64,000 nt of DNA from a virus. The stretch lies in IMG/VR virus record IMGVR_UViG_3300009161_000003, positions 1 through 64,000 of that record; one strand, 5' to 3'. A model generated the notes under the pieces. It was not told where the DNA came from. It ran no database searches and worked only from the letters and a program-made list of their open reading frames with translations. Position 1 is the stretch's first letter. The number at the start of each line of letters is the position of its first letter. The translations under genes and the position numbers were made by a program. Of the stretch, positions 13,281 through 55,279 are shown piece after piece.

Positions 13281-13498
13281 TTTGACTATCCCCTGCCAAA
13301 ATGGTAAAATTGAACTGTCCGAAAGGAATATAATATGGAGTGGCTCGTATTTATACTTATATCCATATTACTAATAAATGGTATGGGTCATAAGTGAAAT
13401 GTCCGAATTGTCCTGTGGTGTATCTCACACCGCTAGGATTTGAATTATAGCCCTCAAACTGCTATAATTGAACTATCAACAAACGAAAGGAAGCAAAA

Positions 13499-13651
13499 AT
13501 GGGAAACTATCAAATCGGAGATAACTACACAACTCTAAAATCTGGAGTTACTGGCGTTATCAAGGAAATCCACCCACAAGCATCTGGCTCGGTGCGTGTT
13601 CTGCTTGATGTAAGCGGAAAAGAGCGTTGGACAACTTGGTCTGCTGAATAA
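13499..13651 (+). CDS. Small SH3-like protein (50 aa)
   Basis: Promoter TTGAAT-17-TATAAT and GAAAGG SD; MGNYQIGD...RWTTW. Confidence 0.6.
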   Translation: MGNYQIGDNYTTLKSGVTGVIKEIHPQASGSVRVLLDVSGKERWTTWSAE

Positions 13652-13660
13652 GCAAATCAA

Positions 13661-13694
13661 ATCTCACCTGAGTATGTGAAAGATAAACTGCTCA
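13661..13694 (+). ncRNA. Repeated H-type pseudoknot motif, copy 1
   Basis: ATCTCAC-CTGAGTAT-GTGAAAGAT-AAAC-TGCTCA. Confidence 0.7.
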
Positions 13695-13728
13695 CCCCTT
13701 TAACCCCTAACAGAAAGTGAACCCGAAT

Positions 13729-14151
13729 ATGTCAAGAGCAAAAGCAATCTCAGTAAAAATCGCAACACCTAAAGTAATTAAGGCACTAGAGCAATCATTA
13801 AATAAACTAGAACTTGATTGGACTTCTCAAGAAGCACAAGAAGCAAAATACCAGAAGTCTATGGAAAAGTGGAAAAAGGAAGTTATTGACTATGCAGTAG
13901 CAAACATCAAGAAGGCAGAAAACTTCCGTACCAATTATCGTTCTTGGAACAACACTCTCAATGTAGATTTTGACATCATCACAAAGGAAGGCAACTTCCC
14001 TACTGAACCAACTAAGGACTATGTAGTTTTGCATCATCACTCATACAATGAGCAGAAAGAGGAAATCTCAAACGCAATTCGTATTCTCAAGATGACAGAT
14101 GAGGAAGTTGTCAATACTTCCACATACAATGCAGTTGCCCGTTATCTGTAA
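13729..14151 (+). CDS. Hypothetical early protein
   Basis: ORF track; coiled-coil. Confidence 0.7.
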   Translation: MSRAKAISVKIATPKVIKALEQSLNKLELDWTSQEAQEAKYQKSMEKWKKEVIDYAVANIKKAENFRTNYRSWNNTLNVDFDIITKEGNFPTEPTKDYVVLHHHSYNEQKEEISNAIRILKMTDEEVVNTSTYNAVARYL

Positions 14152-14239
14152 ATAATCTTGGGGAGGTAGAATAATTCCATTTTCCTCCACCTCCCCATCT
14201 CAAAAATAGACGGGCAAGCAAACGCCCTGATACTACTAA

Positions 14240-14267
14240 CACCCTGAGCAAGGTGAAAAACTGCTCA
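14240..14267 (+). ncRNA. Pseudoknot motif, copy 2
   Basis: CACC-CTGAGCAA-GGTG-AAAAAC-TGCTCA. Confidence 0.75.
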
Positions 14268-14366
14268 CCAAAAAATTGCCCACGGGCCGATGTGATCTTG
14301 CTCACAATGTCCGATTAGTACCTTTTAAGATTGGCTATTGTCAGCCCTATCTGCTAAGATTAGAAT

Positions 14367-14687
14367 ATGACAACGAAAGGAACCCCTATGGAAAACCCCC
14401 TAATGGAAAAGATCGCAGACGAAACAATGGCAGGTGTACACTCAGAGGAAATCACAAGTGAGGCAAGTGCCTTGCTCGCAAGTATTGGAGAAGGTGTAGA
14501 CTTAAACACAATTATGCGAGAGTTGTATAATTATTCTTTAAGTGTTGCCGCTATGACCGCAACCAGAATTGTGCCTTTCTTTCTTAGTGAGAAAGAAATT
14601 GACAATGAAATTGACAAGGCAGTAAAGCATAACGAAACACAGTTAATAAATGAAATTGAATTATTCCTACAATCGGAAGGACAGTAA
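14367..14687 (+). CDS. Hypothetical early protein
   Basis: ORF track; alternative SD-led start at 14388. Confidence 0.65.
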   Translation: MTTKGTPMENPLMEKIADETMAGVHSEEITSEASALLASIGEGVDLNTIMRELYNYSLSVAAMTATRIVPFFLSEKEIDNEIDKAVKHNETQLINEIELFLQSEGQ

Positions 14688-14688
14688 T

Positions 14689-15072
14689 ATGCAAGCAACA
14701 GATACAGAGTTACGCATTGAAATCGAAAGACTAACGCAATTACAAAAAGATACCAAAACAATATCAGAGAGCAACTTTCAGTTATATTTAAAGTTGCAAG
14801 ATAATGTCAGATCTTTTTTTCAAGAACACGTTGGCGGTGGCGAGGACAATGTGTATGTCAGTCTTAATTCAATTAATTCTTTCTTAGCAGAGAATAGTAT
14901 TGAAACAATCAAAAAAACTTTTGCTGTTTATTTTACTATCGACGGGTATGCAGAAGTCGAAGCAGAATCAGCAGAGGAAGCCAGCGATATGTGTAGCAAC
15001 ATTGAAGCGTCATCTTGGGATATAGAAATTTCAAGTTCCGAGTTAAGCATTGATGCTGTAACACCACTATAA
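14689..15072 (+). CDS. Hypothetical protein
   Basis: VEAESAEEA motif common in small phage proteins. Confidence 0.65.
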   Translation: MQATDTELRIEIERLTQLQKDTKTISESNFQLYLKLQDNVRSFFQEHVGGGEDNVYVSLNSINSFLAENSIETIKKTFAVYFTIDGYAEVEAESAEEASDMCSNIEASSWDIEISSSELSIDAVTPL

Positions 15073-15089
15073 AATTCCTATAGGGGAAT

Positions 15090-15117
15090 AGACCTAGCCA
15101 AGTCTTAAAACTGGCTA
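15090..15117 (+). ncRNA. Pseudoknot motif, copy 3 (covariant)
   Basis: AGAC-CTAGCCAA-GTCT-TAAAAC-TGGCTA. Confidence 0.75.
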
Positions 15118-15229
15118 CCGCCCCTGGGCGATGTCCGTTTTGTACCATTTACAATCTTTTAGTCTTAGGATTTGACTTTGGCTCACCTATCCTGTAAAAT
15201 TAGAATATCAACAAAACGAAAGGAATAAA

Positions 15230-16204
15230 ATGGCTCATGAGTTAGAAAGCGATAAATCATTCGCTTCATTTAGACAACCTGCTTGGCATGGTTTAGGTAC
15301 TGTGTTTCAAGAGGAAGTCAATACAACAGAAATGTTAGAGTTAGCAAATCTTCATAAGTGGGATGTTCGCTTAGAGGATGTTGTTATGCCTACACCGCTA
15401 GTATGCGATAAGAATTATTTTTTTGTTACCCGAACGAATCCATTTATCGCAGGACAAAATGATGTGCTTGGCGTAGTTGGCGAACGCTATCACACTCTAC
15501 AAAATGAGGATCTATTCTCATTCGCTGATGCAATGCTTGATGGTGGTCGTTGGGAAACTGCTGGATCAATCAAGGGTGGTCGTGTAGTATTTGGTTCTAT
15601 TGCACTTAATCGCTCAATCGTGTTAGACCCTAATGGTGTAGCAGATAAAATCGATAACTATCTTTTGGTTCACACCTCACACGATGGTTCTGTATCTATT
15701 CAAGCAAGTGTTACACCTGTGCGTGTAGTATGCGCTAACACTCTTAATATGGCGTTGCGCTCTACTAAGCAATCATTCAAGATTCGCCATACTCAAACTG
15801 CTAATGGTAAAGTTCAAGCAGCCCGTACTGCTCTTGGATTAGCCAATGCGTATCTTGATGACTTTTCTAAAATGGCTAACACCATGATCGAAAAAGAAAT
15901 CAACGCAAAACAATTCAATGATGTTCTACTCGCTGTCTATCCTAAGCCTAATGATGATTCCAAAAAGGCTATGACAATGTGGAAATCAAAAATTGAAGTT
16001 ATCAACGATTTATATGTTGGCGATACAAATCATATGATCGCTGGTAATGCTTGGGGTGCGTTTAACGCAATCACCGAACGCCTAGACTGGTATCGTGGTA
16101 CTGGTGAATCTAAGTTGGCAGCAGCAAGTGGATTTGATTCTGCTATGAACGCAGAAAAGAATCGTATTCTTAAAACTGTTAATGCTGTCCTTCAAGTAGC
16201 ATAA
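15230..16204 (+). CDS. DUF932 / TIGR03299-like phage-plasmid protein
   Basis: PAWHGLG, ETAGS..GG.VVF, SHDGS, TPVRVVCANTL, IRHT. Confidence 0.9.
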   Translation: MAHELESDKSFASFRQPAWHGLGTVFQEEVNTTEMLELANLHKWDVRLEDVVMPTPLVCDKNYFFVTRTNPFIAGQNDVLGVVGERYHTLQNEDLFSFADAMLDGGRWETAGSIKGGRVVFGSIALNRSIVLDPNGVADKIDNYLLVHTSHDGSVSIQASVTPVRVVCANTLNMALRSTKQSFKIRHTQTANGKVQAARTALGLANAYLDDFSKMANTMIEKEINAKQFNDVLLAVYPKPNDDSKKAMTMWKSKIEVINDLYVGDTNHMIAGNAWGAFNAITERLDWYRGTGESKLAAASGFDSAMNAEKNRILKTVNAVLQVA

Positions 16205-16210
16205 CAAAAT

Positions 16211-16237
16211 AATCCTGAGCAAGATTTAAAACTGCTC
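16211..16237 (+). ncRNA. Pseudoknot motif, copy 4
   Basis: AATC-CTGAGCAA-GATT-TAAAAC-TGCTC. Confidence 0.75.
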
Positions 16238-16239
16238 TT

Positions 16240-16313
16240 GGTTCCGTAGCATAGTTGGTTAATGCGCTACCCTGTCACGGTAGAGATCGTGGGTTCAAGT
16301 CCCATCGGAATCG
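16240..16313 (+). tRNA. tRNA-Asp(GTC)
   Basis: Acceptor GGTTCCG/CGGAATC, anticodon arm CTACC-CTGTCAC-GGTAG, T-loop GTTCAAG; CCA not encoded. Confidence 0.95.
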
Positions 16314-16583
16314 CGCCCGTGGGCCCAAACCTTATATCCTATCAAACCTCTATCTTATTTTATCTTCAAACCTCTATTAAGAAGAACTTGCTATTTCCCC
16401 GATCTAGGAGTATAATTAATATATGAACCCAGACCGAGATCGACTAAGTTGGCCTATTACCGTACAAGAGTTAGTTAATGAGATATATGAGGATAATCTT
16501 TATCACTTTGAATTCCAGGAAAATATGGGCGGACCAGAGTGTGATTGTCATCTTCATACCACTATGGAAACTATCGTTAAATA

Positions 16584-42685: not shown

Positions 42686-42967
42686 TTACCTCATTGTCAA
42701 ATTCTGCCATATTTCAGACCATTTAGATTTTGTTTTATGACTATTAAACTCTCTAGATATTTTACCTTTGTCTAAATAAATACCGCCCCAAATTCCATAT
42801 TCTTTCTGTGATACACCTACAGCAAAACATGTTGCTGCGACTGGACACTTTAGGCAAACACTGTCAACACCATGACGAATATCTGGAGTTTCTTCATATT
42901 TATCAAAAAATAGATTTGTATCAAAGTCTTTACAAGCAGCACTTTCTTTCCATAAGTGTTTATTCAT
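42686..42967 (-). CDS. whiB: WhiB-family transcription factor
   Basis: W...AAC...FF...C..CPV...C...GIWGG. Confidence 0.92.
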   Translation of the reverse strand: MNKHLWKESAACKDFDTNLFFDKYEETPDIRHGVDSVCLKCPVAATCFAVGVSQKEYGIWGGIYLDKGKISREFNSHKTKSKWSEIWQNLTMR

Positions 42968-45287: not shown

Positions 45288-45929
45288 CTAAAGTGATGTT
45301 ATTGTTATTTTTAGTTTAGGGCATTTAATAGATTTAATTGCCAAAAATTCTTTTTCATCTACAGAAAGTGACCATCTAATTTTAATTGAGACCCAATTTG
45401 AAATATATTGACATTTATATTTTTCATTTGTTGGCAGCCAATCTGCTGGATCTTGATCGCTTTTAGATCTATTTGATGAACCAGTTACCGCAATTAAATG
45501 TCTTGGGTCTGTTTGATCATTTGCATATAGTTCACGTTTTTTATCATCCCATGCAGAGGCTCCAGAATCCCAGGCTTCTGCAAGTGGAACCATATGGTCT
45601 ACATCTAATTTTCCAGCATCAGTTACTTTTACACTGTCATAAATACTAAACCATTCTCCGCCTTTAATTACACAGCCTTTTTCAACAACTGGTTTAATAA
45701 TTGCTTCTGAAATGATTACTGCTTTTCGTGAGTCGCATCCATTACCAACACCAACCCAGTGCTTAAACTTGGTCCTTACGTAGCCTGTACGATCTTCTGG
45801 GGCCACCTTTAAGGAATTTACTGCCTGATCTATAGAGTTATAGGAAATAGTCTTGCTAGGCAAAGCGTAGGCAGTATTTGTAAAGATAAAACTAATTAGT
45901 AATAAGGCTAAGACCATTTTTGATTTCAT
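45288..45929 (-). CDS. Secreted HNH nuclease (DUF1524-like)
   Basis: Signal peptide; DVDHMVPLAEAW.SGA, NRSKSD.DP..W.P. Confidence 0.85.
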   Translation of the reverse strand: MKSKMVLALLLISFIFTNTAYALPSKTISYNSIDQAVNSLKVAPEDRTGYVRTKFKHWVGVGNGCDSRKAVIISEAIIKPVVEKGCVIKGGEWFSIYDSVKVTDAGKLDVDHMVPLAEAWDSGASAWDDKKRELYANDQTDPRHLIAVTGSSNRSKSDQDPADWLPTNEKYKCQYISNWVSIKIRWSLSVDEKEFLAIKSIKCPKLKITITSL

Positions 45930-55247: not shown

Positions 55248-55279
55248 TGAGCAGTTTATAGACAACTACTCGGGTCTAT
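55248..55279 (-). ncRNA. Pseudoknot motif, copy 5
   Basis: ATAGAC-CCGAGTAGTT-GTCTAT-AAAC-TGCTCA on the minus strand. Confidence 0.7.

Follow-up and report, generated by a model that had tools for sequence, protein, structure and literature searches.

The first 64,000 nucleotides (nt) of the virus record IMGVR_UViG_3300009161_000003 (hereafter the window), a complete record of 112,922 base pairs (bp) with direct terminal repeats and 34% G+C, contain five copies of a compact H-type RNA pseudoknot, which forms part of the 3' untranslated region of the preceding gene. Searches of the IMG/VR database recovered at least 180 distinct copies of this element from at least ~120 contigs, and there is very little room for doubt concerning its structure and its conservation throughout the family thus defined. 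Its genomic contexts suggest that it might cap the 3' ends of the upstream messages.

A pseudoknot with two covarying helices

An initial annotation of the window had reported the five copies as covarying pseudoknots of an unrecognized family, and their positions and sequences are exactly as given there. They are listed below in DNA letters, with P1a and P1b denoting the strands of the first helix, P2a and P2b those of the second and L1 to L3 the loops, in the order P1a-L1-P2a-L2-P1b-L3-P2b, followed by the distances to the neighboring open reading frames (ORFs):

Copy 1, 13661..13694, + strand: P1a TCAC (13664-67, extendable from 13661), L1 CT, P2a GAGTA (13670-74), L2 T, P1b GTGA, L3 AAGATAAAC, P2b TGCTC (13689-93); 9-12 nt past the TAA (13649-51) of an ORF of 50 amino acids (aa) and 35 nt ahead of the ATG at 13729
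Copy 2, 14240..14267, + strand: P1a CACC (14240-43), L1 CT, P2a GAGCA, L2 A, P1b GGTG, L3 AAAAAC, P2b TGCTC (14262-66); 88 nt past the stop of a 140-aa ORF (ORF end 14151)
Copy 3, 15090..15117, + strand: P1a AGAC (15090-93), L1 CT, P2a AGCCA, L2 A, P1b GTCT, L3 TAAAAC, P2b TGGCT (15112-16), with P2 fully switched to AGCCA/TGGCT; 17 nt past the TAA (15070-72) of a second 140-aa ORF
Copy 4, 16211..16237, + strand: P1a AATC (16211-14), L1 CT, P2a GAGCA, L2 A, P1b GATT, L3 TAAAAC, P2b TGCTC (16233-37); 6 nt past the stop (16202-04) of a DUF932 gene and 2 nt ahead of the 5' end of a tRNA-Asp
Copy 5, 55248..55279, - strand: P1a ATAGAC (55279-74), L1 CC, P2a GAGTA, L2 GTT, P1b GTCTAT (giving a 6-bp P1), L3 AAAC, P2b TGCTC (55253-49); ~98 nt past the stop of hsp20 (gene 55794-55378)
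tRNA-Asp (GTC), 16240..16314, + strand: adjoins copy 4

Each of the five is thus preceded by an ORF on the same strand. A relaxed pseudoknot descriptor returned ~60 unrelated matches in the phage genome, with the sequence signature confined to the five copies. An IMG/VR scan that used only the letters CCTGAGCA...AAACTGCTC, and did not demand P1, recovered at least 120 loci; 105 of 124 instances selected by these letters form, at the expected spot, a P1 helix with 4 bp or more, where chance would give ~10%, and the sequence of this helix is highly variable, as the initial annotation had held in stating that P1 varies and still pairs. A descriptor in which the sequence of P2 was left free gave 200 matches in 1.2 Mb and none in reversed controls. 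These matches included the compensated P2 variants AAGCA/TGCTT, GGACA/TGTCC, GGCCA/TGGCC, GACCA/TGGTC and AGCCA/TGGCT, and the switch from GAGCA/TGCTC to AGCCA/TGGCT, together with the tolerance of G-U pairs, stands as first described.

Circularity was avoided by picking copies solely by their unpaired and junction letters (CCT..A.G..AAACT). In the commonest length class selected in this way both stems are fully paired in 82 of 97 copies, and 94 copies from the same selection were taken into an alignment (A2). The fraction of paired stem cells in this alignment is 94.7%, as against 76.8% upon shuffling, with none of 500 shuffles reaching the observed value, and cells with changes on both sides number 148 versus 36 in the shuffles. 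Pairing in slid controls of the alignment is at most 37%. Double changes are present in three of the four P1 pairs and in four of the six P2 pairs, such that both stems of the H-type fold covary. A covariance model derived from A2 and run over the whole 112.9-kb genome found exactly the five copies: copies 2, 3 and 4 score 45.0, 29.3 and 45.4 bits, whereas copies 1 and 5, both outside the training set, score 25.3 bits (E 1.4e-4) and 22.5 bits (E 8e-4). The next-best match in the genome (39053-39085; 13.6 bits) is devoid of L1 and P2a and was rejected as a sixth copy.

The features of the fold were defined across the wider family. P1 is a variable helix of 4-7 bp with the pattern NNWC/GWNN and an invariant C-G pair at the junction (94 of 94 aligned copies), and L1 is C-U (C-C in copy 5). 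P2 has 5 bp and an optional sixth U-A pair, usually as (U)GAGCA/UGCUC(A), with an invariant A-U pair facing the junction that is near-invariant even when the search leaves it free. L2 is usually a single nt, mostly T, A or C, and the A-rich L3 always ends in AAAC, the AAAC-U before and at the start of P2b being likewise invariant in 94 of 94 aligned copies. The flanks are A-rich on the 5' side and, on the 3' side, usually consist of an A followed by a G-poor stretch. When a descriptor required neither L1 nor the closing pair, the combination of a CU in L1 and C-G closure was still present in ~160 of 178 sites, and the remainder corresponds to the control rate. Every invariant is placed around the P1/P2 junction, and the early observation of an invariant loop C and AAAC holds there across the family. 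Base triples occupy the helix junction of compact H-type knots such as those of beet western yellows virus (BWYV) and the preQ1-I riboswitch. Two other readings of the conserved letters were rejected: UGCUC as a boxA-like sequence, as this strand covaries with P2a, and mimicry of a tRNA acceptor with a 3' ACC, a trinucleotide that follows three of the five window copies and is weakly enriched across the family.

Rfam 15 contains no match for the motif, in keeping with the initial failure to recognize a family. The whole window yielded no more than two tRNAs at the gathering threshold, the region 13400-16500 gave no match on the motif at E values up to 10, and searches with the motif alone recovered no family, their lone match being a 13.3-bit antisense match to the L13 leader. 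Full-text searches of the literature likewise recovered no description of the motif, although a catalogue of ~10,000 candidate structured RNAs from viruses may hold its hairpin (PMC10690425). This novelty has to be qualified in that the fold has relatives, and its invariant letters recall those of the Xrn1-resistant coremin motif (see below).

Placement relative to genes and distribution

The upstream neighbor shares the strand of the motif in 169 of 191 cases, which agrees with the sense-strand position after stop codons reported for the window, and just three of ~190 copies fall within an ORF on their own strand. Measured from the stop codon to the C of L1, the spacing has a sharp minimum at 9 nt and a mode of 9-14 nt, with P1 starting at least 5 nt from the stop; many copies are situated 50-100 nt from it. 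In contrast, the next start codon follows at widely varying distances (20-300 nt), which indicates that it is the upstream gene to which the motif is anchored. The mRNA channel of the ribosome reaches ~11-13 nt from the P site, and on the basis of this known reach the motif lies at the shortest distance from the stop that spares it from being unwound by a terminating ribosome. A stop codon at a fixed offset of 5 nt was considered and rejected: the TAA frequently seen at -8 to -6 is not the stop of a long ORF and appears to be a piece of the A-rich 5' flank. Five IMG/VR copies are exceptional in that the long ORF upstream terminates at the TGA within CCTGAGCA, such that the gene ends inside the knot.

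The surroundings on the 3' side vary, and comprise a tRNA, an A/C-rich leader with a ribosome-binding site, a T-run or a promoter. A T-rich tail straight after P2b (e.g. ACTTTTTTATTG) is present in 33 of 182 copies (18%). In the window, copies 2 and 3 precede promoter-like sites at 14338-66 and 15172-200, and copy 5 is followed by ACTTTTT and TATAAT-like boxes; these three copies can hence belong only to the upstream transcript.

A distinctive subset of the motifs is associated with tRNAs. In 20 descriptor matches and two further cases identified by eye a same-strand tRNA (Asp, Leu, Glu, Asn or Arg) begins 2-8 nt downstream, and an additional copy is positioned 33 nt before a tRNA-Thr. The motif thus occupies ~22 of 57 gene-to-tRNA junctions; it precedes none of the 38 tRNAs located inside arrays. 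RNase P cleaves at the 5' ends of tRNAs, and its action on the tRNA-Asp of the window would leave a DUF932 mRNA ending 2 nt past copy 4. More generally, such a cut would end the upstream mRNA 2-8 nt past the knot, which, from the enzymology of 3' exonucleases and their need for a longer tail, is probably too short for them to engage. At the equivalent DUF932/tRNA-Asp junction of other phages (our loci L025, L038 and L069) a plain GC hairpin is found instead, which suggests that the pseudoknot and the GC hairpin are interchangeable at this site.

The genes upstream of the motif most often encode DUF932 (21 of 133) and HSP20 (16 of 133) proteins, and those encoding major capsid proteins are found among the diverse remainder. 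The carriers are T4-like cyanophages, the WhiB-encoding phage of the window, and contigs with phage or mobile-element genes in metagenome-assembled genomes (MAGs) of many phyla. A BLAST search of GenBank phages with the 31-nt motif returned mostly noise, with one true copy among the matches, in S-RIM4, a Synechococcus myovirus that its GenBank record describes as an isolate (L179:1199-1226; MK493321.1 ~45612-45640). This copy reads AGTC CT GAGTA T GACT TAAAAC TGCTC and is separated by 10 nt from the preceding TAG stop and by ~30 nt from the following gene. The MAG contigs with the motif are assigned to Nanopelagicaceae, Bifidobacterium, Saccharibacteria, Polaromonas, Methanobrevibacter and others, and the flanking genes checked in them are of phage or mobile-element type (a Mu-like head protein, ArdC-like and HSP20). 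Five MAGs searched in their entirety have 1-3 copies each, and multiple copies share a single contig. Given these low numbers and such neighbors, the motif belongs to phages and mobile elements rather than to host chromosomes at large. The diversity of the carriers argues against a dedicated phage protein shared by all of them, and their breadth implies a role that is either protein-free or tied to universal machinery. Two Methanobrevibacter MAG contigs (L127:377-402 and L131:1893-1918) have copies with a U-run just 5' of an ArdC-like or M78 peptidase gene; if the binning is right, which it may not be, the motif is also present in archaeal mobile elements. In certain related phages (IMG/VR contigs L097, L094, L048 and L024) 6-9 copies occur per ~14 kb, approximately one after almost every small early gene.

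Additional repeated elements are found downstream of the copies in the window. Mini-hairpins of the form GCCC-NN-GGGC follow copy 2 (GCCCACGGGC, 14278-14287), copy 3 (GCCCCTGGGC, 15120-15129) and the 3' end of the tRNA-Asp (GCCCGTGGGC, 16315-16324), and could be terminators lacking a U-run or processing sites. A possible outer helix, AGGGG/CCCCU, might enclose the whole of copy 3 (15083-15124), in competition with the GCCCCTGGGC hairpin. Between the pseudoknot and the next promoter, at 14291-14322 and 15132-15146, there is a repeated regulatory module consisting of the palindrome TGTGATCTTGCTCACA and then a TGTCCGWTTWGTACC box, which is followed by the promoter-like sites mentioned above; similar TGTGA..TCACA palindromes and boxes recur 3' of the motif in related IMG/VR contigs. 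The phage further encodes a WhiB-family protein (42779-42952, - strand; 49.4 bits) and the mycobacteriophage-type family GP88, and from these two genes its host is likely to be a freshwater actinobacterium.

Functional interpretation and known relatives

Taken together, these sequence contexts lead us to lean, if with a confidence that falls slightly short of an even chance, towards a role of the motif as a cap that needs no protein and covers the 3' end of the upstream mRNA, the ends themselves being produced by RNase P, termination or other cuts. Such a knot would fold without protein into a stacked and probably triplex-braced structure, with base triples predicted between the C of L1 and P2 and between the adenines of L3 and P1, and, being positioned just outside the footprint of a ribosome at the stop codon, would escape melting by translation. 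If the transcript were then cut or ended just downstream, by RNase P at an adjoining tRNA, by termination at a U-run or by an endonuclease acting in the G-poor linker, the remaining 3' tail would be too short for 3'-to-5' exonucleases of the PNPase or RNase II/R type, and the upstream message would be stabilized. The presence of genes for abundant proteins, such as HSP20 and the major capsid proteins, upstream of the motif is consistent with this proposal. Among the functions originally listed for the motif, it is the 3' exonuclease barrier or processing boundary that the context favors. A ligand-responsive switch gained no support, given the lack of functional coherence among the flanking genes, and neither did a decoy akin to the ToxI-like antitoxins of type III systems, since the copies are singles separated by whole genes, with a 50-aa, a 140-aa and a 106-aa ORF, DUF932 and hsp20 as neighbors, and do not form a tandem array of ~36-nt units beside a ToxN-type toxin gene; nothing in the context of the motif points to antitermination.

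Several observations weigh against a 3' cap. Many copies have no obvious end-generating element just downstream; one such is copy 1, with its 35-nt interval to the next ATG. Genome compaction might account in part for how near to the stop codon the motif lies. The tRNA-Asp cases largely represent one syntenic lineage (DUF932-motif-tRNA-Asp), which reduces the independent junction events to about six, rather than 22. Lastly, the closest relative by sequence, coremin, blocks a 5'-to-3' enzyme and not a 3'-to-5' one.

Coremin (xrRNA-C, one of the exoribonuclease-resistant RNAs; GUCCGAAGACGUUAAACUAC) and its Watson-Crick variant with GAG-CUC pairing (xrRNA-WCC) are found in beny-, cucumo- and other eukaryotic RNA viruses (PMC6546385, PMC10520033, PMC10321173). 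Its first hairpin has 3-4 bp closed by C-G (U-A is tolerated, G-C is inactive), its loop 1 is YGAD or YGNNAD, with a heptaloop CGAGUAA being also active and Xrn1-resistant, and its conserved spacer, GUUAAACUAC, includes the essential residues A15-A17, C18 and U19 (PMC6546385, PMC10520033, PMC10321173). Stalling of Xrn1 requires a second hairpin, with 4 bp or more, that immediately follows the spacer, and coremin additionally blocks scanning ribosomes and stimulates -1 frameshifting (PMC6546385, PMC10520033, PMC10321173). The phage motif is reminiscent of coremin in its short C-G-closed first hairpin, its pyrimidine-first loop with GA(G), its A-rich spacer ending in AAAC-U that pairs back to the loop, its size (~20-30 nt) and its frequent location in 3' untranslated or intergenic regions, where it is sometimes repeated. 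Its 8-nt loop, C-U-G-A-G-Y-A-W, starts with a pyrimidine and includes GAG, and resembles the active CGAGUAA, but the G is third and the loop departs from the YGAD/YGNNAD patterns. Moreover, the second stem of coremin has 3 bp or is non-canonical, as opposed to the 5-6 Watson-Crick pairs of the phage motif; the former is found in RNA viruses and the latter in DNA phages; and coremin blocks a 5'-to-3' nuclease, whereas the context of the phage motif points to protection of upstream RNA. Hairpins beginning 0-5 nt past P2b are present in 24 of 182 copies, compared with 37.8 of 182 at shifted controls (13% versus 21%), and an equivalent of the second hairpin is accordingly not enriched. Owing to this, and to the direction of the nuclease that coremin blocks, the phage motif was not filed under coremin: it is regarded as a relative in fold rather than as a family member, and the direction of its use is probably different.

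The shared invariants, along with the comparison of the Xrn1-resistant heptaloop with CUGAGUAU in the phage motif and the existence of a variant with GAG-CUC pairing, could alternatively point to a phage counterpart of the xrRNAs, in which the knot would stall a 5'-to-3' exonuclease such as RNase J and protect the downstream RNA in the manner of coremin with Xrn1. Actinobacteria, to which the probable host of the window phage belongs, possess RNase J. We nevertheless consider this explanation unlikely, because the motif is anchored to upstream stops and not to downstream starts, a block placed 2-8 nt before a tRNA would protect a leader that RNase P removes anyway, copies directly 5' of promoters are absent from the downstream transcript, and the hairpin that coremin requires is not enriched. 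The prospects are similarly slight for a binding or processing signal, whereby a host or phage protein, be it an endonuclease, an RNA chaperone or a translational repressor, would recognize the knot and cut or regulate nearby: the C-G, CU, A-U and AAAC invariants do exceed what pairing alone would need, a G-poor single-stranded stretch follows the motif, and some phage early regions contain many copies (up to 9 in 14 kb), but the carriers are too diverse for a shared phage protein, the flanking gene families are not functionally coherent, and the invariants cluster at the helix junction as would be expected of tertiary contacts.

A pseudoknot-braced intrinsic terminator or pause site, with P2 as the terminator hairpin and P1 stabilizing its large loop, would accord with P2 being the minimum-free-energy hairpin in all five window copies, with the T-rich tails and with the copies that precede promoters. 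This is quite unlikely given that 82% of the copies have no T-run, that many are directly followed by a tRNA or by the next ribosome-binding site, positions at which termination would do harm, and that a terminator scan flagged none of the window copies. The spacing of 5-10 nt from the stop matches the geometry of recoding stimulators, and, in view of the effects of coremin on ribosomes, might betoken a roadblock that halts ribosomes after termination or upon read-through, so that translation of the downstream gene is uncoupled. This too is improbable, as the five window stops are followed by no extended or overlapping frames and are associated with no slippery sites, some copies precede tRNAs without a downstream ORF, and many are 50-100 nt from the stop. 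The palindromic nature of TGAGCA-N11-TGCTCA and the occurrence of some copies just 5' of a -35 box would be compatible with a DNA-level site (an operator, or a recombination or replication signal), and a chance repeat might also be envisaged; however, a protein-bound duplex would not be expected to show compensatory changes in two crossing helices or to tolerate G-U pairs, the orientation of the motif strictly follows that of transcription, and the absence of matches in reversed controls speaks against both, making them highly implausible.

Other compact RNAs offer further parallels. In vertebrates, MALAT1 and MEN-beta carry a triple helix just upstream of the tRNA-like mascRNA or menRNA, and this helix protects the 3' end that RNase P generates. 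The same logic, with a compact A-rich tertiary structure directly 5' of a tRNA or tRNA-like element, is apparent in the phage motif, but there is no homology in sequence or fold, as U-rich motifs clamp an A-tract in the former and an H-type pseudoknot is used in the latter, and the downstream element of the phage motif is a real tRNA, found in ~12% of copies. The luteovirus -1 frameshift knots (BWYV and potato leafroll virus) and the preQ1-I riboswitch are similarly compact H-type folds, with a short L1 bearing a conserved C, a junction of 0-1 nt and an A-rich L3 in the minor groove of stem 1. Yet the slippery heptamer that -1 frameshift stimulators have 5-9 nt upstream, within overlapping frames, does not precede the window copies, each of which is preceded by a stop codon and lies in an intergenic region. 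The preQ1-I family (RF00522) gave no Rfam match at E values up to 10, even with the motif alone, and differs in that the L2 of the phage motif varies among T, A and C and does not include a conserved ligand-pairing C, and in that the neighbors are DUF932, HSP20 and unknowns rather than queuosine genes. The bacterial 3' stabilizer hairpins (repetitive extragenic palindromic elements and terminator stems) resemble the phage motif in proposed function and in their position after stop codons, and plain GC hairpins fill the same gene-to-tRNA junction in related phages; the phage motif is distinguished from these as a sequence-conserved pseudoknot with tertiary invariants that is confined to phage and mobile-element DNA.

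Extending the proposed 3' cap, it is conceivable, if rather doubtful, that a small, protein-free and nuclease-proof knot, akin to coremin in fold, constitutes general gene-end punctuation in the DNA phages of many bacterial phyla and acts with RNase P to define and protect mRNA 3' ends, in parallel to MALAT1 and mascRNA. The motif would represent a new and very widespread phage RNA family with clear rules of sequence and structure, the copy in S-RIM4 being a candidate system for bench tests, and it is small enough for use as a synthetic mRNA stabilizer in bacteria. If it is indeed a 3' cap, it would provide phages with a compact ~30-nt means to set message stability gene by gene and would link the maturation of mRNAs to the processing of tRNAs. 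With this motif, the range of exonuclease-resistant RNA knots would extend from eukaryotic RNA viruses to DNA phages.

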